This document shows positions 4,229 to 58,527 of a stretch of DNA of 64,000 bases, one piece after another. Positions within the stretch are counted from its first letter, which is position 1. The number at the start of each line of letters is the position of its first letter. Below the pieces are notes generated by a model that saw nothing but the letters and a program-made list of their open reading frames with translations, ran no database searches and was not told the origin of the DNA. This DNA comes from an uncultured archaeon (GTDB lineage: Archaea > Asgardarchaeota > Lokiarchaeia > Sigyniarchaeales > SOKP01). Position numbers and translations under genes: made by a program. The stretch spans positions 16,985-80,984 of the forward strand of contig CAZALK010000020.1 in NCBI GenBank assembly GCA_964486045.1, written 5' to 3'.

Positions 4229-5032
4229 TTATAAATCAAATAACTCTGATTTTAGTTTTTTTAATTTTCTATAGAGATTCTTAATCGCTTTAATACCCTC
4301 TGAATTTGAGTTAAAGTCGATAGGAGATTCTCCTTTCAAGTCCGCTCTGCCTATTTCGGGGTCAATATTGATTGAATGGTAAAGTGGGATATCCCAATTC
4401 TTTATCCGTTGATTAATTATTTCTAATTGAGTGTCATCGGTTAATTTATTTGCAATAAGATAGATATTAATAACTCCTAATTTTTTGGATAATTCTATAA
4501 TTTTCTTACACAAATCTAATGATTTTTGGGAAGGTTCCGTTATTACTAACATTACGTCAATTCCTTTTGCTGTCCCCCTACCTAAATGTTCTAAACCCGC
4601 CTCAAAATCAACGATTATAACTTCTTCTCTCTTTACAATTAAATTATAAAGTAATGTCCTAATTAATGCATTTTCAGGACAAAGGCATCCGGTCGCAGGT
4701 TCTTCAATAGAACCCAATACTAGAAGTTGTAACCCATCTGGTCCTGAAATCTTATACTTATCTGGGATATCTGAAACCTTTGGGTTAATGTTATATATAC
4801 CTGATCCTGCCCCGTTGACACTTACTCTCTCGTCAATAAGTGTTTTCATTTCTGAGATAGGAACTATTTTTTTTTTTGTCTCATTTTCAATTCCTAATGT
4901 ATAACTAAGATTCATAGCAGAATCATTATCAATCGCCAGAACCTCATAGCCATCTTTAGCAAACATTCTTGCCAAAGTACCGGCAACTAACGTTTTTCCG
5001 ACACCTCCCTTTCCTGAAACCGCAATTTTTAT
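4229..5032 (-). CDS. cooC: CooC-type nickel-insertion accessory ATPase (MinD/ParA P-loop family)
   Basis: The track ORF (4229..4975) lacks the Walker A. The in-frame upstream extension reads IKIAVSGKGGVGKTLVAGTLA (deviant Walker A). An ATGCLCPENA Cys-x-Cys motif as in CooC is present. There is no ATG/GTG/TTG upstream of the P-loop; the candidate ATA at 5032..5030 lies 8 nt after GGTG. Confidence 0.7.
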   Translation of the reverse strand: MKIAVSGKGGVGKTLVAGTLARMFAKDGYEVLAIDNDSAMNLSYTLGIENETKKKIVPISEMKTLIDERVSVNGAGSGIYNINPKVSDIPDKYKISGPDGLQLLVLGSIEEPATGCLCPENALIRTLLYNLIVKREEVIIVDFEAGLEHLGRGTAKGIDVMLVITEPSQKSLDLCKKIIELSKKLGVINIYLIANKLTDDTQLEIINQRIKNWDIPLYHSINIDPEIGRADLKGESPIDFNSNSEGIKAIKNLYRKLKKLKSELFDL

Positions 5033-5274
5033 AGTTCTAGCACCACATAATTGTTAAATATCAAAATCTTTTTGATATTAAATTTTATTCAATTTATATA
5101 AAATTTACTACGATAATAATATCATCTATTCTACTGTCTAGTAGTTAGATTAATAAATGATGACATAAGTAATTCCTAAACGATTTGGGTAGAGGAAATT
5201 ATTAAAAACTAGTAAAATAATTAAAAATTAATAATTAATATATCAATTTATGTATTAAAATTTTTTATCAATTA

Positions 5275-6096
5275 TTGATTATGACAGAGTCAAGAAATAG
5301 AGGACTTGCTCCGAAGAATGATGTTGAGCACGCTTATTTTAGTGGCATGATTATTCAACGAGTTCGTAATTTCGTAAAAAATGATAGTGTCAATGAACTC
5401 GTCAATTGGGGATATGGATCAAGTAGTAGAACGATTGATCCTAAAACTGTAAAGATCAAAGGAGATCGGGGTACTAATGGAATTTTTACTGCGTTTAAAT
5501 CAGAAAACGCTGAACTTTACCAATCACTGTTACCAAAACAGCTTGCAATACCAGAAAAGCCCATTATCTCTTTAGTTACAGTAGATTACAATACTGGTAA
5601 TTCTATAACCCGTTACAATGAAGGTATGGTTATGATAAAGGGTATATGTCCTGATGGTGAAGAAACTTGGTTTGTATTGAGTATGCCCGTTGAAACATGG
5701 TTAATGATGGAAATGGGAGTGGACTGGGGTTTTCCAAAACAAATTTTTGATATTACAGTCGCAAAAGAGAATACTTTAGTCTTGAATAAAGGTGTTAAAC
5801 ATTTAGCTCTTGACCTAACTCCAGACTCCTCTTTAAAGAAGGAAGACATTCTTATTCCTAAAGGAGATGCTTGGGGAATTAATAATATGGCAGTAATTCA
5901 CCCTGTTAGAAAAGATATTTTGTTGAGATTTTCTTATGGGCCCATAAGCGTTCAAGAAAGGGTACAAGGAATAGTGAGAGTCTCAATTGATCGAAAACAA
6001 TCTTGGGCGGAATTAATTCCTGAAGGTTTAAACATTCCTGGTGTGTCACAGAGATATGTACCTGTTGGAGACTCATTGATAAAAAAAGTCTTTTAA
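5275..6096 (+). CDS. acetoacetate decarboxylase (ADC) family protein
   Basis: 273 aa. EMGVDWGFPKQ resembles the catalytic-Lys block (GRE-x-x-x-YPKK) of ADC-family proteins, and the length is compatible. Confidence 0.5.
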   Translation: MIMTESRNRGLAPKNDVEHAYFSGMIIQRVRNFVKNDSVNELVNWGYGSSSRTIDPKTVKIKGDRGTNGIFTAFKSENAELYQSLLPKQLAIPEKPIISLVTVDYNTGNSITRYNEGMVMIKGICPDGEETWFVLSMPVETWLMMEMGVDWGFPKQIFDITVAKENTLVLNKGVKHLALDLTPDSSLKKEDILIPKGDAWGINNMAVIHPVRKDILLRFSYGPISVQERVQGIVRVSIDRKQSWAELIPEGLNIPGVSQRYVPVGDSLIKKVF

Positions 6097-6136
6097 AATC
6101 GGTGAAATTTTTATTTCAAAACCGTTAAAAGTAGGG

Positions 6137-7192
6137 TTGGTAGGAACAGGAGCAATGGGATATGCTCATTTACAAGCTTATCTTAAATATCCTGAAAAAA
6201 TCAAATTAGTAGCAGTTTGTGATTTACAAGAACAAGCTGCTAAAGCATATGCAAAAGCCGCAAAAATATCGTCTATTTACACTGATTTTGAAAAGATGCT
6301 AAAACAAGAGGATATCGATGCGGTTGATATATGTACCATCCATGATCAACATAAATACGAAACGATTTTAGCTGCTGAAACAGGTAAACACATATTACTT
6401 GAAAAACCCATGGCTTGTTCAATGAAGGATTGTCGAGACATGGTTCAAGCAACTAAAAAAGCCGGAGTTACTTATATGATGGCTCAAGTTCTTCGATATC
6501 TACCTTCCTCTCAGGCTGTATTAAGTCTTATGGAGAATAAGGAAATCGGTTCTATTAATGCGGTACGAGGAGACTCTATTCTAAAACAATCCTTGATTTT
6601 ACCTCATGATCATTGGATGTTTGATGGTAATCGTGCAGGCGGAGGTGTTTTGATTACACTTTCAATCCATATGATAGATCTTTTAAGGTATTTTATTGGA
6701 GATGTGAGAAAAGTCAATGGTATCTGTAAAAATTTTAACCATTTATTTGTAAATGACGCTGAAGACTTCTCAAGTGCTACTTTAGAATTCAAAACTGGGA
6801 CAATTGGGAATATCTTTGGAAGTCTTTCAATTGGGAGAACTCCTTGGAATATAAAATACATGATTTTTGGTGATTCTGGGACAATTTATTCAAATCCTCC
6901 TCCCATAAAAAAAGGACACTATCAAATCGGTAATGCGATGTTATCATCTAAAAAATTAGATTTGGAGGATAAAACAACTCAGAAAGGAAAGTTTATACCA
7001 ATAAATCAGGATTCAACAAAAGTCGTAAGCGAAAATCCATTTATTAACGAAGTTATTCATTTTGCTGATTGCTGTCAAACTAATGAAGAACCAATAAGTA
7101 GCGGGAAAGATAACTTAAATACTATGAAAATAATCTTTGGTATCTATAAATCATCTAAAACTAGTGAAGTGATTAATTTGAATGATATATAA
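6137..7192 (+). CDS. Gfo/Idh/MocA family NAD(P)-dependent oxidoreductase
   Basis: N-terminal Rossmann motif (V)GLVGTGAMG, an EKP motif (LLEKPMA) and a C-terminal alpha/beta domain. It overlaps the next gene by 11 nt. Confidence 0.8.
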   Translation: MVGTGAMGYAHLQAYLKYPEKIKLVAVCDLQEQAAKAYAKAAKISSIYTDFEKMLKQEDIDAVDICTIHDQHKYETILAAETGKHILLEKPMACSMKDCRDMVQATKKAGVTYMMAQVLRYLPSSQAVLSLMENKEIGSINAVRGDSILKQSLILPHDHWMFDGNRAGGGVLITLSIHMIDLLRYFIGDVRKVNGICKNFNHLFVNDAEDFSSATLEFKTGTIGNIFGSLSIGRTPWNIKYMIFGDSGTIYSNPPPIKKGHYQIGNAMLSSKKLDLEDKTTQKGKFIPINQDSTKVVSENPFINEVIHFADCCQTNEEPISSGKDNLNTMKIIFGIYKSSKTSEVINLNDI

Positions 7193-30339: not shown

Positions 30340-31806
30340 CTAAATATAAGTATGGATTAACTCCAGCAGATTTTTTGAGAAATCTGGTAAGTTTTTCTCT
30401 ATTTTTTTAATTTCAAGAGATTTTTCAATAAACATTAGTAAATATAAGTTATATTTTTCAACTTGGATTTTTTTAAAAACAACTTTCTTAGAGTCGTCAG
30501 CAATTCCGGTGGATACTAAAAAATCTTGTTTCAATACTTTGAATTCCTTAAAGGTTTTATACAAGGTTTGAAAGTGAGGTGCTGAGATTTCAAAAACCCT
30601 GTCAGATATCTCAGATTTTGAAAAATTGGATAATATTATTCCATTTTCGTTAAGTAATAAAATTGCGTCTGAATTCGTTTTTCTTGCGAATTGCTTCAAT
30701 TGATTTCTGAATAATTCTCGATTAGGACTTAACTGAGAAAGTCCATATGAATAAGCAGTAATAAGACTCCAATGGTCGAAAATACTAGTTTGGAATATTT
30801 TAGTTAAAAATCGATCAGATCTCTTTTCTACCTCATCAGCAATAATTTCTAAATTTTTAAATATTTCTTTTGAACCCTTCAGATCAGGATCGAATTTATT
30901 TAAACACACAACTATGGGCGGAAATTCATCTAATTCGACTAATATTTTCGAAATTCTTTGGAAAAGATTTAATGCTTCTTCAATTCTCTCTACATCTTGT
31001 ATATCAATAAAGAAGAAAATTAGATCAACATTATATAAATAGACTTGACTTTGCTCAAGAAATCTTTCTAAATATTTTTTTTGGCCACCTATATCCCATA
31101 GAGAGATTAACGAGTTCTGTTCTTCAAATATATTCTCTTCTGTTCTTTCAACACCTTTAGTAGGTAATGATTTGATAATTTCTGAATATTTCTTTCTGAT
31201 TCCATAAAGAAAACTTGATTTACCAGCCTTATCTAATCCTGTCAATAATATTTTAATTTGTCTTTTTGGAGAAAAAGGATCTTTTAATTCTTTTGTAAAC
31301 TCGAATAGTTCTTCTCTAATATCATCCATTATTCGTTTCTGGTCATTAAATTCTTTTACATTCTGAATTTGTGTAGCTGTTTTATCGATTATAATCCTTA
31401 AATATTTCATATTTTCATAAAAAAAAACCTTATCTTCTTCGTCAATTAATACAGTTATTGTCGCAGCTAGTGCTTGACCGCGTGCTTTTTCATCAGGGAT
31501 AAGAAAAAAATAAGTTAAGCCATTCAATTTTAAATCAGGAAAAGGAAGAATTCCAAAGTAGTTAACTCCTATGTCTGATCCCTGAGAATTTTGATAAACT
31601 GAATCACCCATAAGCAAACTAATAGTTTTCATAGCTATTAGAAGTCCTGATTTCTCTTCTAGGTTAGAAGGCCATATTATTCTAGGTGTTGGGCCTTTTT
31701 CATCAAAAATACTTAAAACAACCGCTTTTATTAGATTGGATTTTTTGTCACCTGTATCGTTTCCTTTCATCTTCTTCTTATTCGAATTTGAGTCGGTTTT
31801 TGCCAA
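30340..31806 (-). CDS. three-domain GTPase: N-terminal longin-like domain + Rag/Gtr-like G domain + C-terminal roadblock-like domain
   Basis: 488 aa. The N-domain covers about aa 25-145 (LIKAVVLSIFDEKGPTPRIIWP...ILPFPDLKLNGLTYFFLI). G1 is LLTGLDKAGKSS, G3 is WDIGGQ, G4 is NKFD and G5 is QTSIFDHWSLITAYS..LSP (as in Rag TSIWD...LIP). About 125 aa of alpha/beta C-domain follow. It ends in TAG. Confidence 0.7.
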   Translation of the reverse strand: MAKTDSNSNKKKMKGNDTGDKKSNLIKAVVLSIFDEKGPTPRIIWPSNLEEKSGLLIAMKTISLLMGDSVYQNSQGSDIGVNYFGILPFPDLKLNGLTYFFLIPDEKARGQALAATITVLIDEEDKVFFYENMKYLRIIIDKTATQIQNVKEFNDQKRIMDDIREELFEFTKELKDPFSPKRQIKILLTGLDKAGKSSFLYGIRKKYSEIIKSLPTKGVERTEENIFEEQNSLISLWDIGGQKKYLERFLEQSQVYLYNVDLIFFFIDIQDVERIEEALNLFQRISKILVELDEFPPIVVCLNKFDPDLKGSKEIFKNLEIIADEVEKRSDRFLTKIFQTSIFDHWSLITAYSYGLSQLSPNRELFRNQLKQFARKTNSDAILLLNENGIILSNFSKSEISDRVFEISAPHFQTLYKTFKEFKVLKQDFLVSTGIADDSKKVVFKKIQVEKYNLYLLMFIEKSLEIKKIEKNLPDFSKNLLELIHTYI

Positions 31807-36190: not shown

Positions 36191-37165
36191 TTATTTATAG
36201 AGGATCTCTTTCAATATTTTTGCGAAAGCTTCAAAGTCTTCTTTGTTAAAAACAGGATTATCTTTTAATAGAAGTAAGTAATAGGGTGTGGACTCTTTTC
36301 GTAACGAAATCTGTTTAAACATGAAATTTTTCCCATATCTTTGTACAATCATTCTTTCCTCGTACTTTTTCTCCAAAACGCTTGTGGATTGAAAGGAATC
36401 ATGAAGAGTGAGAAAATATGGGGTTGAAGCGGTGAGTAGGTGCCGAGTCTCATCATCCTTATAATAAGATCCAATTATTAGTGAATTGTCGTCAATTACT
36501 ACTACCCCACCGGAATCTACCTTTTTAGCAAATTCTACAATTGTTTTTTCAATTAATTCAGATTTTGGATAGAGACTTAAAAGGATTTCAGACATGGCTG
36601 CTATTATTGATGAGAATTCATAAATGGAGGTTTCATAGAAATAAATTTCCTTATAATCTGTAGCGTTTCTTATTAGTTCCTTTAAATCTATTATAAGATT
36701 TTCCATTTCATTTAAGGCACCCCTCTTTAAAGCAGGATCATATTTATGAAGGAAAACATAGATTGGTGGTTCAATTTCCAATTTGTTAAACTGCTCAATA
36801 ACATCTTTAAAATAACTTATTGCTTCAGGTATTCGCGGTTTATTCTGGATATCAATAACATAGATGGCAATTTCAGTTCCATCAAAGTATTTATTTGGCT
36901 TTTTTAAATAGGAGATCCTATAGCTAACCTGCCCGCCTAAATCCCATTCACTTATCTCTTTTCCTAGAAAATCGAATATTCTCCTTTGCGCTCCTCTCGT
37001 AGGAGATAATACAGCAATTTTTGAGAATTCTCTTTGGAGAGATAAAATTATGCTTGTCTTGCCTGCATCATCTAGCCCCGTAAATAAAATCTTTGAAGAT
37101 TCGGGTTCAGCTTCTAGATCATCTTTTTTTAAATACAAGATTGATTGTTTAAGATTTTTCTCCAT
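36191..37165 (-). CDS. Rag/Gtr-like small GTPase (G domain + C-terminal roadblock-like domain)
   Basis: 324 aa. G1 is ILFTGLDDAGKTS, G3 is EWDLGGQ, G4 is FLHKYD (His-Lys-x-Asp as in RagA HKMD) and G5 is YETSIYEFSSIIAAMSEILLSLYP (compare RagA [21 protein letters not shown]). A roughly 125-aa C-domain follows (VVVIDDNSLIIGSY...). Confidence 0.75.
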   Translation of the reverse strand: MEKNLKQSILYLKKDDLEAEPESSKILFTGLDDAGKTSIILSLQREFSKIAVLSPTRGAQRRIFDFLGKEISEWDLGGQVSYRISYLKKPNKYFDGTEIAIYVIDIQNKPRIPEAISYFKDVIEQFNKLEIEPPIYVFLHKYDPALKRGALNEMENLIIDLKELIRNATDYKEIYFYETSIYEFSSIIAAMSEILLSLYPKSELIEKTIVEFAKKVDSGGVVVIDDNSLIIGSYYKDDETRHLLTASTPYFLTLHDSFQSTSVLEKKYEERMIVQRYGKNFMFKQISLRKESTPYYLLLLKDNPVFNKEDFEAFAKILKEILYK

Positions 37166-42862: not shown

Positions 42863-44362
42863 ATGGAAAGATTATTTGAATCTTCGCTAATTAAAGGATT
42901 TATATTTAGTGCCTACGGGGAACTAGGACCACAACCCGTTTATACATGGCCTAATTATTATACCGAAAAAGAAATAAAACAAATTAAAACTGAAGAAAAG
43001 AAATCTCTAATTTTATCATTAAGGGATGTCACTCAAATCTCAATAAAGAATCTCAGCTTATTTATAAGTGACAGAGAATTCTCACAAGAAAAAGACTTCC
43101 AAAATCTAAGATATTTCGCTATTTTACCCTATCCTGATTTTAAAGCAACATCTCTCACTTATTTTCATTATATTGAAAATGGTACTTTTGACCTACCTGT
43201 CGCCACCGCATTTTCAATATTAGTTGAGGAATATAGAAGAAGTTTCTTATACAATAATATAAACAGAATTAAACCGATAGTATCTGAATTCTTTACTCGG
43301 TTTGATCAAAAATTACTTGAGAATTATCCTCCTAAAGAAGAAATAGAAGAATTTTTTATTGAGTTGTTTAAACAGCTTAATGAGATTGAAAAAAATCCAT
43401 CAACCCCGATCACCTCTCACCGAAAATTAAAACTTATTTTTGCAGGTTTAGATGATTCTGGTAAAACCAGCTTCCTTTTAAGTGTTGATCGTAAATATAG
43501 TAAACTTATTGGGTTAAAACCAACTACAGGAGCGAGTATCAAATCAATTGAAGCTCTAGGTGCTACAATCTTTTTGTGGGACTTAGGTGGCCAGTTGAAA
43601 TTTCGAAGAAAGTATATAGATAAGGCTGAGATTTACTTATATGAAGCTGATTTAATTTTCTATTTTATTGACGTAAGAAATGAAAGTAGATTTGAAGAAA
43701 GCATAGAATATCTTCTTAGCATAAAAAAAGTATTAGGAGATTTTAAACAAAATACTCCAATTGTCTACATATTATCAAAAGGAGATTCTGATATTATAAA
43801 TACAGGAGAAATCAAAAATAATATTGAAAATGTGAAGAAAAAACTATTTGAAATTACTCCTAAAGAATCCCCTGAATTATATGTCACCAGTATCTTTCAA
43901 ATTTTTACAATTCTAAGGGCATTTTCTTCTGGAATTTCAAAATTAAGCCCTAATAGAAATTTAATAAATCATAACCTTAGAAATTTCTCTCTTAAAACAA
44001 AGGCTTTTTTAACATTACTCTTAAGTGAAGATGGTTTAGTTTTAGCAGACTTCTATTCCTCAAAAGCAAAGAAACTAACAAAGATTCCCAAATCTGAGGA
44101 ACTCATAAATGTTTTTGAGGTAACTGCACCTCAATTTGCCATGCTATTTAAAATCTTCTCAAGATTCAAAGCTTTAAAAGAAGAAGAAGCGATATTTAAA
44201 GTGTCTGATTCTGTAATCCTTTTTAAAAGGATCAAAGTTGTTGAGGAAAACATGTTCATTCTATTTCTGGTTGATAATGAGAAAAGAAAGGAAAAAATCA
44301 ACATTAAATTGCCCGTTTTCTTAGAGCAAACAAAAGAGTTATTGTTAAGATATATTGCATAA
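42863..44362 (+). CDS. three-domain GTPase: N-terminal longin-like domain + Rag/Gtr-like G domain + C-terminal roadblock-like domain (paralog of 30340..31806)
   Basis: 499 aa. The N-domain reads LIKGFIFSAYGELGPQPVYTWP...ILPYPDFKATSLTYFHYI. G1 is LIFAGLDDSGKTS, G3 is WDLGGQ, G4 is LSKGD and G5 is VTSIFQIFTILRAFSSGISKLSP. The C-domain reads LTLLLSEDGLVLADF.... Confidence 0.7.
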   Translation: MERLFESSLIKGFIFSAYGELGPQPVYTWPNYYTEKEIKQIKTEEKKSLILSLRDVTQISIKNLSLFISDREFSQEKDFQNLRYFAILPYPDFKATSLTYFHYIENGTFDLPVATAFSILVEEYRRSFLYNNINRIKPIVSEFFTRFDQKLLENYPPKEEIEEFFIELFKQLNEIEKNPSTPITSHRKLKLIFAGLDDSGKTSFLLSVDRKYSKLIGLKPTTGASIKSIEALGATIFLWDLGGQLKFRRKYIDKAEIYLYEADLIFYFIDVRNESRFEESIEYLLSIKKVLGDFKQNTPIVYILSKGDSDIINTGEIKNNIENVKKKLFEITPKESPELYVTSIFQIFTILRAFSSGISKLSPNRNLINHNLRNFSLKTKAFLTLLLSEDGLVLADFYSSKAKKLTKIPKSEELINVFEVTAPQFAMLFKIFSRFKALKEEEAIFKVSDSVILFKRIKVVEENMFILFLVDNEKRKEKINIKLPVFLEQTKELLLRYIA

Positions 44363-52343: not shown

Positions 52344-52462
52344 ATCATTTCAAGAGCAATATTTAACTAATTATTTTTATTTGAAAAATTGGGGATTAAT
52401 CAACTCCTATTTATTAAATTTCATTTTATTAATACAAGAATTTATAGAATCCTAATACCTAT

Positions 52463-52536
52463 GGGAAGGTGGTCTAGATTGGTATGATTCTTGGTTCGGA
52501 ACCAAGAAACCGGGGGTTCAAATCCCCCCTTTCCCA
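52463..52536 (+). tRNA. tRNA-Pro (anticodon CGG)
   Basis: The 74-nt cloverleaf was folded by hand. The acceptor stem is GGGAAGG/CTTTCCC (one G-U). The anticodon stem is CTTGG/CCAAG with loop TTCGGAA, giving anticodon CGG. The T arm is GGGGG-TTCAAAT-CCCCC, the discriminator is A, and CCA is not encoded. It forms a G/C-rich island in AT-rich DNA. Confidence 0.85.
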
Positions 52537-52626
52537 ATAAATCTAACCCATTCATTTATAAAGTGAAATGTATTTAATTAGATAGGAATTAAGCAATTTA
52601 TTTAATTTAATTGGGGACTTTGAATT

Positions 52627-53331
52627 ATGGCATTAGATCTAAACGGATGGATTGATGGTATAACAGCCACAGGTGTAGTAGTTTTTGGTATATTTGTAGG
52701 TTTATTCTTTTTTTACGAGTCAAGAAAGAGGAATGCAAAACTTTTAGCTTATTTGGGTTTAGCTAATTTGTTTGCTGGTCTTATGTTTTTAGGTGTGTTT
52801 TTAGATTTCCTTTTTGTACTCATATTACAGCAGAATATTGTTAATAATGGAATTGTAGCATTACTTTCTTATATCTGGTTTGCTCCTGTAATAATATCAG
52901 CGATGTATATTGGAGCTGAGCTCTTAGCTCCAAAAATAAAAAAACCTATATTCATAATCTTCTTAATTATTTCCATTATCTTTGAAATTGTAATATTCAT
53001 AGATCGTACAAATTCATTTAATTTCGTCCCTGCTATACCTATCCCTCCACCTATAAATTTAATTGATTATAATGTCAGTCTTCTCTCTTTAGCTGGAATA
53101 CTTATGGGTGGGTTATTATTACTGGTTTTGGTATTTTTAGGATTAGGATTTTTATATAAAGCATTGCAATCTTCAGGAGTAATTCGAAAAAATTTCTTAC
53201 TATTATCTGCTGGTTCAATTTCTTTCTGTATTTTTGGGTTATTAGAAGGTTTAATTGCTCCGGGACCGCTTGTAATTTTTATAAGGTTGGGTTATGGTAG
53301 TTCCTTTATACTCATGTATTTCGGTCTGTAA
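52627..53331 (+). CDS. hypothetical multi-pass membrane protein
   Basis: 234 aa with about 7 hydrophobic segments and no recognisable family. Confidence 0.5.
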   Translation: MALDLNGWIDGITATGVVVFGIFVGLFFFYESRKRNAKLLAYLGLANLFAGLMFLGVFLDFLFVLILQQNIVNNGIVALLSYIWFAPVIISAMYIGAELLAPKIKKPIFIIFLIISIIFEIVIFIDRTNSFNFVPAIPIPPPINLIDYNVSLLSLAGILMGGLLLLVLVFLGLGFLYKALQSSGVIRKNFLLLSAGSISFCIFGLLEGLIAPGPLVIFIRLGYGSSFILMYFGL

Positions 53332-53439: not shown

Positions 53440-54492
53440 TTGAAAACCATGGAAAGACAAATAATTAAAGCTGTAGTATACAGTAATTTAGATGAAGAAT
53501 TGGGTCCCGATCCTAAAGCTTTTACACCTGATAATTTTCCTCTAGTAAATTTAATGCTTATTAGTATGAAAACCTTTGCCGTTCTTACTGGTGAGAAAGG
53601 ATTTATACCGGAGTCACTAGTTATTCTTCCGTTTCCATCACTTAAACTAAAGGGTTTAATTAAGTATATTAATTGGGAGGACCCAAAGAAACGAGGGGGT
53701 TTTGGCCAATCTAATATTGCGATATTTTTCCAAGAAATGGATGATGCAATTTTTTATAAGTATTTAAAGGAACTCTCAGCTCCGTTTAACGATGTAGCCC
53801 AAAACATCGCATTTTTAGAAAAATCTAATGCTCCTAAGGAAGATTATATTAATGAGTTAATAAATCTTCAAAATGCATTAACCGAAATTTTAGAAGAATT
53901 AAGAAGCATAGAGCTTTCGAAGTCAAACGTTGAGTCGTTGGAAGGGAGAATTAAGGATAGGAATTTGATAGATTTTCAATTTAAAATTATTCTTGTAGGG
54001 GATCCAACGGTAGGAAAAACAAGTCTAATTCTAAGATATACTGATAATGCTTTTAGGCGAGCATATGTTTCAACTATGGGTGTTCATGTTTCAAATAAAA
54101 TATTTAAAGCTGAAGATTCTGCGATTATCCAGCTTGTTTTATGGGACATAGGAGGTCAAGAAAGATTTAAAATAATGAGGCAACAGTTTTATCAAGGATC
54201 TGATGCAGTATTTATAATTTTTGACCTTACTAATCCCGATTCATTTAGAGGTGTGCCTAATTGGTATTCAGATATACAAAAACTATTAAAATTAAATAAA
54301 GAAGATACTCTAGGTTTCCTAGTTGGAAATAAGAGGGATTTAGATAAGGACATAAAAATAAAATCTGAAGAGGCTCAAAATCTGGCCGAACAGTTCAATT
54401 TAGAATATCTTGAAACTTCAGCACTCTCAGGAGAAAACGTTTATGCCGTTTTCAGCAATATCGCCAATTTACTCTATGAATCGAGAAAATAA
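53440..54492 (+). CDS. N-terminal longin-like domain + Rab/Ras-like small GTPase
   Basis: 350 aa. The N-domain IIKAVVYSNLDEELGPDPKAF...LVILPFPSLKLKGLIKYI belongs to the same family as the N-domains of the Rag-like proteins. G1 is LVGDPTVGKTS and switch I is YVSTMGV. G3 is WDIGGQERF, G4 is GNKRDL and G5 is ETSALSG. The probable start is the ATG at 53449. Confidence 0.75.
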   Translation: MKTMERQIIKAVVYSNLDEELGPDPKAFTPDNFPLVNLMLISMKTFAVLTGEKGFIPESLVILPFPSLKLKGLIKYINWEDPKKRGGFGQSNIAIFFQEMDDAIFYKYLKELSAPFNDVAQNIAFLEKSNAPKEDYINELINLQNALTEILEELRSIELSKSNVESLEGRIKDRNLIDFQFKIILVGDPTVGKTSLILRYTDNAFRRAYVSTMGVHVSNKIFKAEDSAIIQLVLWDIGGQERFKIMRQQFYQGSDAVFIIFDLTNPDSFRGVPNWYSDIQKLLKLNKEDTLGFLVGNKRDLDKDIKIKSEEAQNLAEQFNLEYLETSALSGENVYAVFSNIANLLYESRK

Positions 54493-54671
54493 TTTTGGGT
54501 GAATAGATCGTGAAAGGATGGTTTCACGAACTTATAATTCTCTAAGAAATCTATCATTTAGATTAAGAATTTTTTTAAATTCAGACGGTTAACAGTGAAG
54601 TTTAAACTATAAATTGCCCGATTAAATTATATTAATTATTTCATTATTTTTCTATAAAGAGAGTAGATAAT

Positions 54672-55505
54672 TTGTATATTGATTGTCATGCACACTTATT
54701 TTTTAACCCTATTCACACAGAAGCTATTGATGAAGATATCACAGGTGTTATCCCAACTCCTAATACAGATTTTATAAGTAAAACGATCTCTAACGCAGAA
54801 GAGAAAGGAGTTAGTCATTTTGTTGGAGTAATAAGCGATCCTAATAATTTTCCCTATTATCAGATTCAATTGGAGTTAGAAAATATTATACACATAATCG
54901 GGATCTCAAGGGGTAATGCACTTGGAGACCAAACACATATGTTTTCTCTACTGGAAAAGGAAATAGAAACAAAAATACCTCAAGGTATAGGAGAGATTGG
55001 TTTAGATTATGAATATGGTTTTGATAAGTTAAATATCCATGAAAAAAACTTGATGAAAAAAAAACAGCAGGAATTATTTGGAAAGTAAATTCAAATAGCA
55101 AAAGAAATTAATATCCCTATTGTCGTGCATGCTGGGTATGGAACAGATAAAGATATTGTTACAATATTAAAACAAGAACAAGCTCAAGATGTGGGGGGGC
55201 AAATTCATGGGTATATGTCTAATGAGGTGTTAGTTTCTGAACTACTTGATATTGGTTTTTACTTTTCATTTGGATATTTTCACACGAGAGAAGACGAATT
55301 CAAAAAAATAATTGAATTAGTCCCTTTAGAACACCTTCTTGCTGAAACTGATTATCCATATCATTTACTGGATTCTCCAAAGAGATTTATATTTCCAGAA
55401 GATGTAGTTTTAATAACTGACGAGATTGTTACTTTAAAAGTGATTGATTCTAAAATTTTTTGTAATCAGGTAATGAGAAATGCTAGACGACTCTTTAGAT
55501 ACTAG
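54672..55505 (+). CDS. tatD: TatD-family metal-dependent hydrolase, interrupted by one in-frame TAA at 55086..55088
   Basis: Track ORFs 54672..55088 and 55125..55505 share a frame. The junction reads KKQQELFGK*IQIAKEINIPIVVHAG and aligns with the conserved TatD block Q-x-x-x-F-x-x-Q-[IL]-x-[IL]-A-x-E-x-x-x-P-[VI]-x-[IV]-H, with the stop at the Gln position. The N-terminus is IDCHAHL. The final stop is TAG. Confidence 0.75.
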
Positions 55506-55807
55506 ATACGACATAGAAACCGAGAAGATCCAACTCACTGAATATTTAGAAATGTTAAGATTTATTTTTACTTTTAGTTTTAAATTCAAAAATCTTAAAT
55601 AAAAATTACTTATTATACTGAACTAATAAAAATTTTCGTCAAAAGAAGAGATAACAGATGAAGGTTGTCTTATTTAAGACAATTTTTTAAATATTTTAGA
55701 TGTAAAGATTCTTAATTAAAATAACACCAATATTTTATAAAACTACATATATAAGTTTACAAATGAAGAAAGACTAACTATTTTGTTATATAACGCATTT
55801 CTTTATT

Positions 55808-56857
55808 ATGATGAAAGAGATTATTAAATCTATTGTCTACACCTCAATGGATGAGAGGTTAGGACCGAGTCCGCATTTATGGTTGCCATTAGATTTACCC
55901 GAAGATATTCGAATGGGAGTAAGCATAAAATCAATTACGATGCTTACAACAGATCAAGGAATTATCCCTAAATCATTAGTAATCATGCCCTTCCCTTCTT
56001 TTGGACAAAAAGGATTGATAAAATATATTGAACGTGCAGATGATTCTCGCCGCGGAGGTATAGCATTATCATCAATTACACTATTATTTGATGAAGCCGA
56101 TGATCTTATTTTCTATAAATACTTGGATTACCTTGAAACTGCGTTTTCTAAAAGCGCCCAGAAAATTATTGAATTAGAAAATCAGAATGCAGAAAGCGTT
56201 GAGATTTATGCAGAGATAAATATCCTTCGAAAAAACCTCACAGAAATTTTAAATGATTTACAAAACAAAGAAAAATCAATTATTGAAGGAAAGGCGTTTC
56301 CTAAAGAAGAAACTGATAAAGAGTTAGTTGGATTTCATTCCAAAATTATTGTATGTGGAGATCCATCTGTAGGTAAAACCAGTACTATCCTACGATTTAC
56401 TGATAACGCTTTCATCCGTACTTATATCCCTACTTTAGGTGTAAGTATTTCTGAGAAAACTATCAAAATAAAAGAAGAGTATGTGAATTTAATCTTTTGG
56501 GATATAGCTGGACAAAGTAAATTTGAAATGATGAGGAGACATTTTTATCAAGGTGCAGAAGCGGTAATTGTTATATTTGATCTAACAAATCGTAAGTCAT
56601 TTGAAAGTGTTTCAGGTTGGTATAAGGACATAAAGAGGTACATCGAAATCTACCAAAACACTTTAATAGGGTTTGTTTTAGGAAATAAAGAGGATTTAGT
56701 TGGTGAGAGGAAAGTTTCAACTGCAGAGGCTAGTAGTGTAGCCAAAAGTCTAAACATTGGATACGTCGAGACTTCAGCTAAGACTGGTAAAAATGTTGAA
56801 CAGTTATTTTATAGAATAGCAGATTCTTTATTAAAAACAAAAAAAAAAAATGATTAA
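55808..56857 (+). CDS. N-terminal longin-like domain + Rab/Ras-like small GTPase (paralog of 53440..54492)
   Basis: 349 aa. The N-domain reads IIKSIVYTSMDERLGPSPHLW...LVIMPFPSFGQKGLIKYI. G1 is VCGDPSVGKTS and switch I is YIPTLGV. G3 is WDIAGQSKF, G4 is GNKEDL and G5 is ETSAKTGKNV. There is no C-terminal Cys (no prenylation motif). Confidence 0.75.
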   Translation: MMKEIIKSIVYTSMDERLGPSPHLWLPLDLPEDIRMGVSIKSITMLTTDQGIIPKSLVIMPFPSFGQKGLIKYIERADDSRRGGIALSSITLLFDEADDLIFYKYLDYLETAFSKSAQKIIELENQNAESVEIYAEINILRKNLTEILNDLQNKEKSIIEGKAFPKEETDKELVGFHSKIIVCGDPSVGKTSTILRFTDNAFIRTYIPTLGVSISEKTIKIKEEYVNLIFWDIAGQSKFEMMRRHFYQGAEAVIVIFDLTNRKSFESVSGWYKDIKRYIEIYQNTLIGFVLGNKEDLVGERKVSTAEASSVAKSLNIGYVETSAKTGKNVEQLFYRIADSLLKTKKKND

Positions 56858-56872
56858 AAATTTGAGATAAAA

Positions 56873-57448
56873 ATGAATTTAGAAGAAATTATTTTCAAAA
56901 GAAGAACAATTAGAAGATTTAAGCAAGATCCAATCTCGTTAGACACCTTAAAGAAGTTAGTGGATTTTGCTCGTGTTGCCCCAATGGCAAGTAATATTCA
57001 AGCCCTTGAATTTATCATCATTAAAGAGGAGGAAGAGAGAAAAAAAGTTTTTCAACTAGTACATTTTGCTAGTTCACTTCCTAAAGATCAAAGAACTCCT
57101 GAAAGCGGAAGAGAACCTACTGCTTATATCGTAGTTCTAGCAAATACCAATATAAAAAAATCCTTTGTAGATTTCGATGTTGGAGCGGCTGTTGAAAACA
57201 TATTACTCGGTGCAATTAATTTTGGGATTGGGACATGCTGGATGGCTAACATCAACGCGAAAAAAATAAGAGAAATGTATGAAATCCCTGAGCATTATGA
57301 TATAAAACAGGTCATCAGTTTAGGAATCCCGGATGAAGAATCTGTTATGGAACCAATTGAGGATTCATTTAAATATTGGAAAGACCAAGATGGAAAGATG
57401 CACATTCCTAAAAGAGATTTAAAAGATGTGATATTCAAAATCTATTAA
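56873..57448 (+). CDS. nitroreductase-family protein
   Basis: RRTIRRFKQDPIS, the APMASNIQ block and the C-terminal GIGTCWM block are typical of FMN-dependent nitroreductases. Confidence 0.8.
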   Translation: MNLEEIIFKRRTIRRFKQDPISLDTLKKLVDFARVAPMASNIQALEFIIIKEEEERKKVFQLVHFASSLPKDQRTPESGREPTAYIVVLANTNIKKSFVDFDVGAAVENILLGAINFGIGTCWMANINAKKIREMYEIPEHYDIKQVISLGIPDEESVMEPIEDSFKYWKDQDGKMHIPKRDLKDVIFKIY

Positions 57449-57639: not shown

Positions 57640-58527
57640 TTGAGTGAAACAAGAAAAAGATTAAAAAAGAAGTCCCTATATTTTATTTACAAAGTAAAAA
57701 ACAATATTAAAAAAATAGAGGAAAAATGCATGAAGATAATAGAAATTGAAGGTGTTGGTGAAAAATATGCTAAAACTTTAGAGAAAGCAGGTATAGCAAA
57801 TGTCAAGGACTTAATACCTTTAAAATGGAAAGAAATTAAGGATCTCGCTGCTAAAACAGATATTTCTTTAAAATTAGTTGAAAAATGGCAAGATCAGGCA
57901 GAATTAATGAAAATAAAAGGTGTTGGTCCTGAATATTCCGAAGTCTTGAATAGAGTTGGAATAGATTCAACTCGAGAACTTGCCTATCGAAACCCTAAAA
58001 ATACACTTGAAAAAATTGTTGAATTTGACAAGAAACAACCTAATGTCATAAGAAAAATCCCAGTTGCTAAAGATATAGAAGGCTGGATTACTGAAGCCAA
58101 AGGTATGATTAAAGAGAAAAATGTAAAGATTACAACAAAAACAACTCCTATAATTGACATCGAGGGAATTGGTGATAAATTTGGAAAAACTTTAGAAAAA
58201 GTGGGTGTAAGTTTTGTCGAAAATCTTGTGGGTTTAGATAAAGACGGCATAAAAGAATTAGCTTCGAAAACGAAAATCTCAGAAAAATTAATAGACAAAT
58301 GGGCAGAACATGCAGATTTGATGAGAATAGGGGGTGTGGGACCGGAATATTCTGAAGTATTGAATGAAATTGGAATCGACTCAGTAAAAGAATTTGCACA
58401 ACGTAACCCCAAAAATACTTTAGACCGAATAATGGCCTTGGATAAAGAAAAACCAGACATTTTCAGGAGACCACCATCTTTAAAAATGGTTGAAGAATGG
58501 ATTGAAGAAGCCAAGAAAATTAAATAA
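57640..58527 (+). CDS. tandem DUF4332-type helix-hairpin-helix protein (internally duplicated)
   Basis: It consists of two copies of about 130 aa. Copy 1 reads IEGVGEKYAKTLEKAGI...IKGVGPEYSEVLNRVGIDSTRELAYRNPKNTLEKI. Copy 2 reads IEGIGDKFGKTLEKVGV...IGGVGPEYSEVLNEIGIDSVKEFAQRNPKNTLDRI. The likely start is the ATG at 57730. Confidence 0.65.
   Translation: MSETRKRLKKKSLYFIYKVKNNIKKIEEKCMKIIEIEGVGEKYAKTLEKAGIANVKDLIPLKWKEIKDLAAKTDISLKLVEKWQDQAELMKIKGVGPEYSEVLNRVGIDSTRELAYRNPKNTLEKIVEFDKKQPNVIRKIPVAKDIEGWITEAKGMIKEKNVKITTKTTPIIDIEGIGDKFGKTLEKVGVSFVENLVGLDKDGIKELASKTKISEKLIDKWAEHADLMRIGGVGPEYSEVLNEIGIDSVKEFAQRNPKNTLDRIMALDKEKPDIFRRPPSLKMVEEWIEEAKKIK

Follow-up and report, generated by a model that had tools for sequence, protein, structure and literature searches.

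Fusions of longin domains to small GTPases are a described feature of Asgard archaea. The account of Klinger et al. (2016) given in PMC4917890 mentions, for Lokiarchaeum, five longins that are joined to Arf-like GTPases, fusions to Arf-like and Rag GTPases are also found in Liu et al. (2021; preprint 10.1101/2020.10.19.343400), and Prometheoarchaeum MK-D1 has 74 GTPases, with architectures termed LG, LGR and GXLX among them (Tran et al. 2024, PMC10933270). NPRL2-like longins have also been reported in Asgard. The subject of this analysis is a pair of neighbouring genes, A and B, within a window of 64,000 nucleotides from an uncultured archaeon of the Lokiarchaeia (contig CAZALK010000020.1), each of which joins an N-terminal longin domain to a Ras/Rab-like G domain. 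This is the order of the LG fusions, in which a longin is followed by a small GTPase, and A and B are of this type; two further genes of the window, C and D, are of the LGR type. The fusion architecture has thus already been published for Asgard archaea, and A and B do not represent a new kind of protein. The published catalogues list the architecture; absent from the cited fusion papers are the conservation, in Ras-like fusions, of the GP and Arg motifs of longins that act as GTPase-activating proteins (GAPs), the joint loss of these motifs, and the occurrence of A and B as a tandem in a fixed gene neighbourhood. That A and B are Asgard RasL small GTPases fused to a longin of the folliculin (FLCN)/NPRL2/SMCR8 type is, in terms of identity and architecture, near certain. 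The explanation of the locus as a whole that we consider best, and which we hold with somewhat more than even confidence, is that of a tandem longin-GTPase pair whose longin would be a built-in regulator of the GAP type.

The eukaryotic counterparts of such a regulator are the GAP longins of three complexes: FLCN-FNIP, NPRL2-NPRL3 of GATOR1, and C9orf72-SMCR8. Arginine fingers lie in their longin domains, and include FLCN R164, directed at RagC, NPRL2 R78, directed at RagA, and SMCR8 R147. A and B resemble these proteins in the longin fold, the GP motif and a conserved Arg between strands β4 and β5, and the likeness extends to the Folliculin family of Pfam by way of homologous N-domains that are fused to Rag-like GTPases. 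The clients of the eukaryotic complexes are RagC/D for FLCN-FNIP, RagA/B for GATOR1 and ARF/Rab proteins for C9orf72-SMCR8; in A and B, the client would be the Ras/Rab-like G domain itself. Unlike the eukaryotic complexes, A and B hold regulator and GTPase in one polypeptide, lack the DENN or NPRL2 C-terminal domain, and both carry the Arg, which in each eukaryotic heterodimer is found in one subunit only. A GP motif located directly before strand 2, in combination with an arginine finger, has been described as the mark of the GAP-type longins FLCN, NPRL2, SMCR8 and C9orf72 and of some stand-alone Asgard longins, the GP motif being missing from TRAPP, adaptin and DENND longins (PMC12290439). 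The same survey, from 2025, raised the question of which Asgard GTPases are the clients of such longins, and makes no mention of the fusions (PMC12290439).

Other systems share part of this design. In Rag/Gtr heterodimers and in MglA-MglB, as in A and B, a small GTPase is combined with a dimerisation platform of the roadblock/longin superfamily, and among Rags paralogous pairs are the rule. The Rag platform, however, is C-terminal, of the roadblock type and non-catalytic, whereas the longin of A and B is N-terminal, and the platform of MglA/MglB is a separate protein, whereas it is fused in A and B. Eukaryotic Rabs have G1 to G5 and the switch II Gln intact, as do the G domains of A and B, but A and B differ from them in having no prenylatable C-terminal Cys and in carrying an N-terminal extension of 175 residues. 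The closest solved structure, that of a Lokiarchaeota Roadblock-Longin protein (8yqg), shares the GP motif with A and B but is not fused to a GTPase.

Gene A (53449..54492, plus strand) encodes a longin and Ras/Rab-like GTPase of 347 residues, and its paralog, gene B (55808..56857, plus strand), one of 349. An earlier reading of the window, made from the letters alone and referred to here as the sequence-only reading, had described two paralogs of 350 and 349 residues that can be aligned over their whole length. Its length for B holds; that for A corresponds to a start at TTG 53440, which is unlikely, and ATG 53449 is most likely the true start, because an identical 347-residue protein has been called in public assemblies and the orthologs of A, which have 345-350 residues and an N-terminus of the form M-[EK]-R-Q, begin at the same Met. 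The end-to-end relationship was borne out, with 155 identities over 347 residues (45%, E 2e-107), and all the peptides and G motifs that had been cited could be located in the two translations. Conservation was followed in 65 A-type and 57 B-type sequences taken from 80 related genomic loci, and a set of 30 B orthologs was defined by synteny. Median identity is 58% among A-type and 63% among B-type sequences, and 44% between the two types; since identity within each type exceeds that between them, the duplication must be old, and the tandem of A and B is by this comparison ancient.

The window has a G+C content of about 30%, and the best homologs of its proteins come from Asgard archaea, in metagenome-assembled genomes (MAGs) that bear the names Promethearchaeota or Lokiarchaeia. 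Asgard MAGs account for every named homolog and for 79 of the 80 related loci, the exception being locus L067, which is titled Candidatus Deferrimicrobium sp. Public databases hold hundreds of orthologs under the name "Rab family GTPase" or, for gene C, "ADP-ribosylation factor-like protein". Some genomes carry additional copies: in locus L040, B is preceded by two A-type genes (5001-7137), L067, L069 and L070 are among the loci with extra tandem longin-GTPase genes, and adjacent B-like pairs are seen in loci other than L040. These extra tandem copies indicate that the longin-GTPase family expands through local duplication.

The N-terminal domain of A, a longin of the FLCN/NPRL2 type, spans residues 1-158 (53449..53922, plus strand). 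An AlphaFold2 model of this domain alone, built on an 18-sequence alignment, has a predicted local distance difference test (pLDDT) score of 90.7 and a predicted template modelling (pTM) score of 0.86, and displays strands at residues 6-15, 19-26, 58-62, 67-77 and 85-95 and helices at residues 32-47, 96-125 and 130-159. The resulting topology, β-β-α-β-β-β-α-α with no N-terminal helix, is that by which longins are defined, and the full-length model of A agrees with it (pTM 0.67, with low confidence in the linker at 160-169 and in switch I at 205-210). The N-domain is therefore a true longin fold as modelled, in keeping with the longin-like domain that the sequence-only reading had proposed. That reading had also described a coiled linker between the two domains; the stretch is present, but residues 130-158 form the last helix of the longin fold.

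Family databases say little about this domain, since scans of the A and B N-domains (residues 1-175) against Pfam and NCBIfam gave no match, and the Pfam scan of A and B recovered no DENN or NPR2 domain, the longin being followed by the GTPase. Its relatives emerge from structure. In a Foldseek search of the PDB, ranks 1 and 2 are taken by 8yqg, the dimeric longin domain of the Lokiarchaeota Roadblock-Longin protein (template modelling (TM) score 0.74-0.76, E 3e-7), ranks 3-8 and 10 by 362-370-residue chains of NPRL2-containing GATOR1 entries and by yeast Npr2 (8adl_S), with E values from 1e-5 to 3e-3, and rank 9 by the folliculin-complex chain 8dhb_J (E 2.6e-3). From rank 11 downwards the matches are weaker, and include folliculin-complex chains, Lst4, DENND10 (rank 13, E 6e-3) and C9orf72/SMCR8, with sedlin, a TRAPP longin of the guanine nucleotide exchange factor (GEF) type, at rank 43 (E 0.7). 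The best solved structures are thus longin domains, and the closest relatives after 8yqg, whose sequence is also matched by the profile of the 18-sequence alignment (E 1.5e-5), are the GAP longins NPRL2, Npr2 and those of the FLCN complex.

Within this fold, A carries Gly19-Pro20, a GP motif located where strand 2 begins (53503..53508, plus strand), and Arg82-Gly83 in the β4-β5 loop (53692..53697, plus strand), where the Arg is a candidate arginine finger; the same motifs lie at 55862-55867 and 56051-56056 of the plus strand in B. G19, P20, R82 and G83 are all invariant in the 65 A orthologs, in a lineage whose N-domains average about 57% identity. In the 30 syntenic B orthologs G19-P20 and G83 are invariant as well, and position 82 is occupied by Arg in 22 sequences and by Lys in eight. 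The GP motif, by which longins of the FLCN/NPRL2/SMCR8 type are recognised, is present in all 18 rows of the alignment used for modelling. The two motifs also tend to be lost together: R82 is missing from 6/6 divergent paralogs that lack G19, compared to 9/113 sequences that retain it (Fisher p = 1.4e-6, a value that is indicative only, the sequences being related). Human NPRL2 and FLCN sequences, verified against the PDB in a check that also supports the chain identities given above, were compared by hhalign both as single sequences and as metazoan profiles. The GP motif corresponds to G20-P21 of NPRL2 (E 0.002-0.008) in an alignment confined to the segment from strand 1 through GP to strand 2, R82 corresponds to R164 of FLCN in a local alignment of non-significant E (0.48), and a global alignment to NPRL2 places R82 one column away from R78. 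The longin of A and B can thus be said to keep two hallmarks of GAP longins, the GP motif and a conserved Arg that is a candidate finger.

The same module is attached to GTPases of a second family. A search of the window with the N-domain found gene C (30340..31806, minus strand; E 4e-15), which encodes 488 residues: the longin N-domain is followed by a G domain of the Gtr1/RagA type, and the protein is extended at its C-terminus. Its N-domain is 31% identical to that of A over 163 residues (BLASTP, E 2e-16), and Pfam places Gtr1_RagA at residues 185-399 and a weak Folliculin match at 97-158, inside the N-domain. Gene D (42863..44362, plus strand), of 499 residues, is a diverged paralog of C over its full length (E 2e-79) with an 18-residue insert in its longin and a Rag-like G domain (Gtr1_RagA at 190-410); in the alignment it lacks an Arg where the candidate finger would be. 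The four N-domains to which the sequence-only reading had pointed are therefore all present. That reading had held that one N-domain serves two GTPase families and had named a profile-profile comparison as the decisive one; in hhalign the Ras-like and Rag-like N-domains align over 134 columns with a probability of 98.75% and E 1.4e-16. Pfam Folliculin (PF11704) matches six of the 18 aligned N-domains, all of them Rag-fused, with a best E of 2e-4, and one family member, P0326, exceeds the Pfam cut-off for Folliculin.

When 1.84 billion representative proteins were searched exhaustively with a profile of the N-domain, just 293 clusters were returned, so that the family of modules is small. The commonest architecture among the matches is a protein of about 345 residues with a longin and a Ras-like G domain; others are proteins of 460-580 residues with a longin, a Rag-like G domain and a C-terminal extension, proteins of about 290 residues in which the longin lies behind an N-terminal domain of about 110 residues, and longins with uncharacterised C-terminal regions. 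P0261 (525 residues) combines longin, Ras-like GTPase and TIR domain, and P0384 (409 residues) has two GP-motif longin domains in tandem on one chain. With Ras-like, Rag-like, Ras-TIR, N-extended and double-longin forms all represented, the proposal that the N-domain is a portable module is supported.

Several observations on the other GTPases of the window may be added. Gene C is unusually conserved, its best 120 database matches being 74-99% identical and almost all 485-490 residues long, compared to 54-83% identity in the A family. C and D, which lie 11 kb apart on opposite strands, make up a pair with an Arg-bearing and an Arg-less member, and recall FLCN/FNIP and NPRL2/NPRL3 in this respect. 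A third Rag-like GTPase, of 324 residues (36191-37165, minus strand), has no longin N-domain; among solved structures it matches 8yl2 closely (E 7e-88), and the "monomeric Rag-like GTPase LokiRagM" is a relative (8zla, E 2e-30). Five small GTPase genes are thus found within 27 kb of the window, dispersed among metabolic genes. A regulatory island made up of these five genes was considered and rejected, the genes in between being ordinary metabolic ones.

The G domain of A, a member of the Ras superfamily, occupies residues 176-347 (53974..54489, plus strand). Pfam Ras (PF00071) matches A at 182-344, in the numbering from TTG, with E 2.8e-45, and B at 179-341 with E 6e-48. In A, the P-loop lies at G184-S192, the switch I Thr at T209, DxxGQ at 233-237, NKxD at 294-297 and SA at 324-325. 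The motifs of A and B read, respectively, GDPTVGKTS and GDPSVGKTS, YVSTMGV and YIPTLGV, WDIGGQ and WDIAGQ, and GNKRDL and GNKEDL, with ETSA in both, so that each protein has the G1, switch I Thr, G3, G4 and G5 elements that characterise small GTPases of the Ras superfamily. No variation is seen among the 65 A-type sequences in the P-loop, in the switch I Thr, in DxxGQ with its catalytic Gln, in NKxD or in SA, and the same residues are kept by 56 or more of the 57 B-type sequences.

Rabs make up all of the best 60 matches in a sequence search of the PDB and all of the best 50 matches in a Foldseek search of the PDB with the full-length model, where Rab43, Rab11, Rab1, Rab3 and Rab8 are matched with TM scores of 0.82-0.88 at 28-35% identity. 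The assignment of a Rab/Ras-type G domain made by the sequence-only reading is thereby supported. The five signatures RabF1 to RabF5, reportedly those of Pereira-Leal and Seabra from 2000, are said to read IGVDF, KLQIW, RFRSIT, YYRGA and LVYDIT; at the corresponding positions A has MGVHV, QLVLW, RFKIMR, FYQGS and IIFDLT, of which the RabF4 and RabF5 counterparts are similar and the rest partial. The Cys motif for geranylgeranylation, which a strict definition of Rabs requires, is missing from both proteins: the tail of A ends in LLYESRK and that of B in KTKKKND, neither with a terminal Cys, and a Cys within the last six residues is seen in 1/65 A-type and 2/57 B-type sequences. This absence, which had been noticed from the letters alone, agrees with published statements that Asgard GTPases are without prenylation signals and prenylation machinery (PMC10933270, PMC4917890). 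In phylogenetic analysis, Asgard RasL proteins grouped with Rab, Ras, Rho and Ran collectively, and no Asgard sequences were specifically sister to Rabs (10.1101/2024.02.28.582541); "Rab-like" thus denotes resemblance and not membership. The MK-D1 protein WP_147663426.1, tagged "LG", lies inside the Rab clade of another study (PMC10933270), and its G4 region (WYSDV...GNKCDL) resembles that of A and B.

The pair is embedded in a recurring gene order. Over the 80 related loci, genes for phosphoenolpyruvate synthase, UPF0147 and a 234-residue membrane protein are followed by A, B and a nitroreductase. A B-type gene lies downstream of A in 31 of the 43 loci that have at least 4.5 kb of flank; the two are arranged head to tail, 23 of 38 pairs having a spacer of 163-500 bp and the remainder one of 1.0-3.3 kb, and their adjacency and orientation are retained even between genomes with just 54-76% identity in A. 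In the window, the polytopic membrane protein (52627..53331, plus strand) has about 6-7 hydrophobic segments and is separated by 117 bp from the downstream ATG of A; Pfam and NCBIfam gave no match for it. An ortholog more than 60% identical is found within 300 bp upstream of A in 38/60 loci, which makes this protein a possible partner, judged by its position, for GTPases without lipid anchors. The nitroreductase-family gene (56873..57448, plus strand; PF00881) begins 15 bp downstream of B, and a nitroreductase follows B within 120 bp in 30/38 pairs.

In many relatives a single-domain small GTPase of about 170 residues, which shares 36-38% identity with the G domain of B, is encoded on the opposite strand just past the nitroreductase (loci L002, L007, L009, L020, L024, L029, L031, L034, L036, L040, L064 and L066); in the window, this position is taken by a DUF4332/HhH protein (57640-58527). 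A tRNA-Pro (CGG) gene lies at 52462-52537 on the plus strand, between the UPF0147 and membrane-protein genes, and apart from this upstream tRNA an Rfam search of the locus found no RNA.

The sequence-only reading had remarked that the two GTPase genes flank tatD. As to position this is correct: a tatD-like gene (54672..55505, plus strand) lies between them. Its frame is interrupted, however, by an in-frame TAA at 55086-55088, so that the translation reads ELFGK, then the stop, then IQIAKEINIPIVVH, and the two halves match positions 1-111 and 131-253 of Pfam TatD_DNase. An independent Logan assembly (SRR8799001) has the split as well, and the gene is probably a pseudogene. No tatD is present in the A-B interval of any of the 80 related loci or of locus L081, and the closest relative has two unrelated minus-strand genes in this interval. 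A functional tie between the pair and tatD was rejected on these grounds. Being absent elsewhere and broken here, tatD is best seen as incidental, lineage-specific cargo in a spacer that tolerates insertions, and its association with A and B as accidental.

How might such a fusion work? To our knowledge, longin/roadblock modules all dimerise. In the mechanism that we propose, the longin domain would act as a built-in regulator of the G domain attached to it; A and B would dimerise through the longin sheet, probably as an A:B heterodimer, and Arg82, which would lie beside the GP loop, would be offered to the nucleotide pocket of a G domain, either in cis or across the dimer. The longin would then be a tethered GTPase-activating element, in the manner of FLCN Arg164 on RagC and NPRL2 Arg78 on RagA. 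The retention of Gln237 and of all G motifs leads to the expectation that hydrolysis requires an Arg from outside the G domain. A and B would in this way form a self-contained, self-timing switch with a built-in off-timer, whose output, and any membrane attachment, would be independent of prenylation. The GAP mechanism taken by itself we regard as falling just short of an even chance.

A number of points weigh against this proposal. We know of no biochemical report of GAP activity for any Asgard longin, and eukaryotic GAP longins possess C-terminal DENN or NPRL2-specific domains that are absent from A and B. A permanently tethered GAP would seem to undo the switch unless it were itself regulated, and heterodimerisation is suggested solely by synteny. 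The eight syntenic B orthologs with Lys82 and the Arg-less D count in the same direction, as does 8yqg, which has the GP motif but no Arg at the finger position in the profile alignment. Comparison with human NPRL2 and FLCN by hhalign, finally, yields just short or non-significant matches, so that the link to GAP longins rests on structure, on the motifs and on the Folliculin matches of the Rag-fused homologs.

Some of the same facts invite a different explanation, in which the longin is a module for dimerisation, scaffolding or localisation only, and the GP motif and Arg are structural or form a binding surface without being catalytic. Its role would then be comparable to that of the roadblock C-terminal domains of Rag/Gtr proteins or of MglB platforms, with G domains paired or docked on a partner such as the membrane protein. 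The closest structure, 8yqg, is indeed a dimeric longin without the Arg, D and some B orthologs manage without it or with Lys, a polytopic membrane protein is the conserved direct neighbour in 38/60 loci, and longin/RB-GTPase fusions have been modelled as dimers in which the G domains take variable positions (Tran et al., PMC10933270). A scaffold of this kind, however, would hardly account for the complete invariance of G19, P20, R82 and G83 in the A lineage against a domain identity of about 57%, for the joint disappearance of Gly19 and Arg82, or for the fact that NPRL2/Npr2, which are catalytic GAP subunits, give the best structural matches among eukaryotic proteins; dimerisation, moreover, is compatible with catalysis. 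We consider a purely scaffolding longin rather unlikely.

The longin could also work in the opposite sense, as an auto-GEF or a stabiliser of the nucleotide-free state, as TRAPP (Bet5/Trs23), Mon1-Ccz1 and DENN proteins do on Rabs. The majority of longin-containing Rab regulators are GEFs (PMC10933270), the G domain of A and B is Rab-like, and both DENND10 and the sedlin complex appear among the fold matches. Their ranks of 13 and 43, with E values of 6e-3 and 0.7, nevertheless compare poorly with the 1e-5 of NPRL2, the GP motif is missing from TRAPP, adaptin and DENND longins (PMC12290439), and the Pfam likeness is to Folliculin and not to Sybindin or Sedlin, all of which makes an exchange function distinctly improbable. 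More improbable still is that A and B are independent duplicates, adjacent by descent alone, whose N-domain has an unrelated function such as PAS/GAF-like ligand sensing. The A-B spacer does admit 1-3.3 kb of unrelated genes, about a quarter of the adequately flanked loci have no B within 5 kb, and the broad class of folds to which longins belong also contains sensor domains (PMC4917890), LOV/PAS being among the low-ranking fold matches; but these PAS/LOV matches are non-significant (E > 0.1, probability < 0.5), both paralogs bear the same motifs, and adjacency and orientation persist where A orthologs share only 54-76% identity.

The reading of A and B as a longin-GTPase pair with built-in GAP-type control can be taken further. 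A and B might be obligate partners in a longin-longin heterodimer, where the Arg82 and GP loop of each chain complete an active site, either that of the same chain or that of the other, and fused units of this kind, with Ras-like as well as Rag-like G domains, might be ancestral, so that the eukaryotic GAP complexes (folliculin, GATOR1 and C9orf72-SMCR8) and their clients would have been derived from them by gene fission. This extension we hold to be unlikely; if it were true, the fusion would name the clients of the GP-motif Asgard longins, left open in the survey cited above (PMC12290439).

Asgard small GTPases and their longin and roadblock partners are central to the debate on the origin of eukaryotic membrane and nutrient signalling, and the cited literature on the fused longin-GTPases contains no biochemical characterisation of them. 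Should GTP hydrolysis prove to be controlled by Arg82 or the GP motif, the fusion would identify client GTPases of folliculin/NPRL2-type archaeal longins, and the longin-GAP mechanism would predate eukaryogenesis. The locus therefore provides an experimental handle on whether control of small GTPases by longin GAPs is older than eukaryotes.

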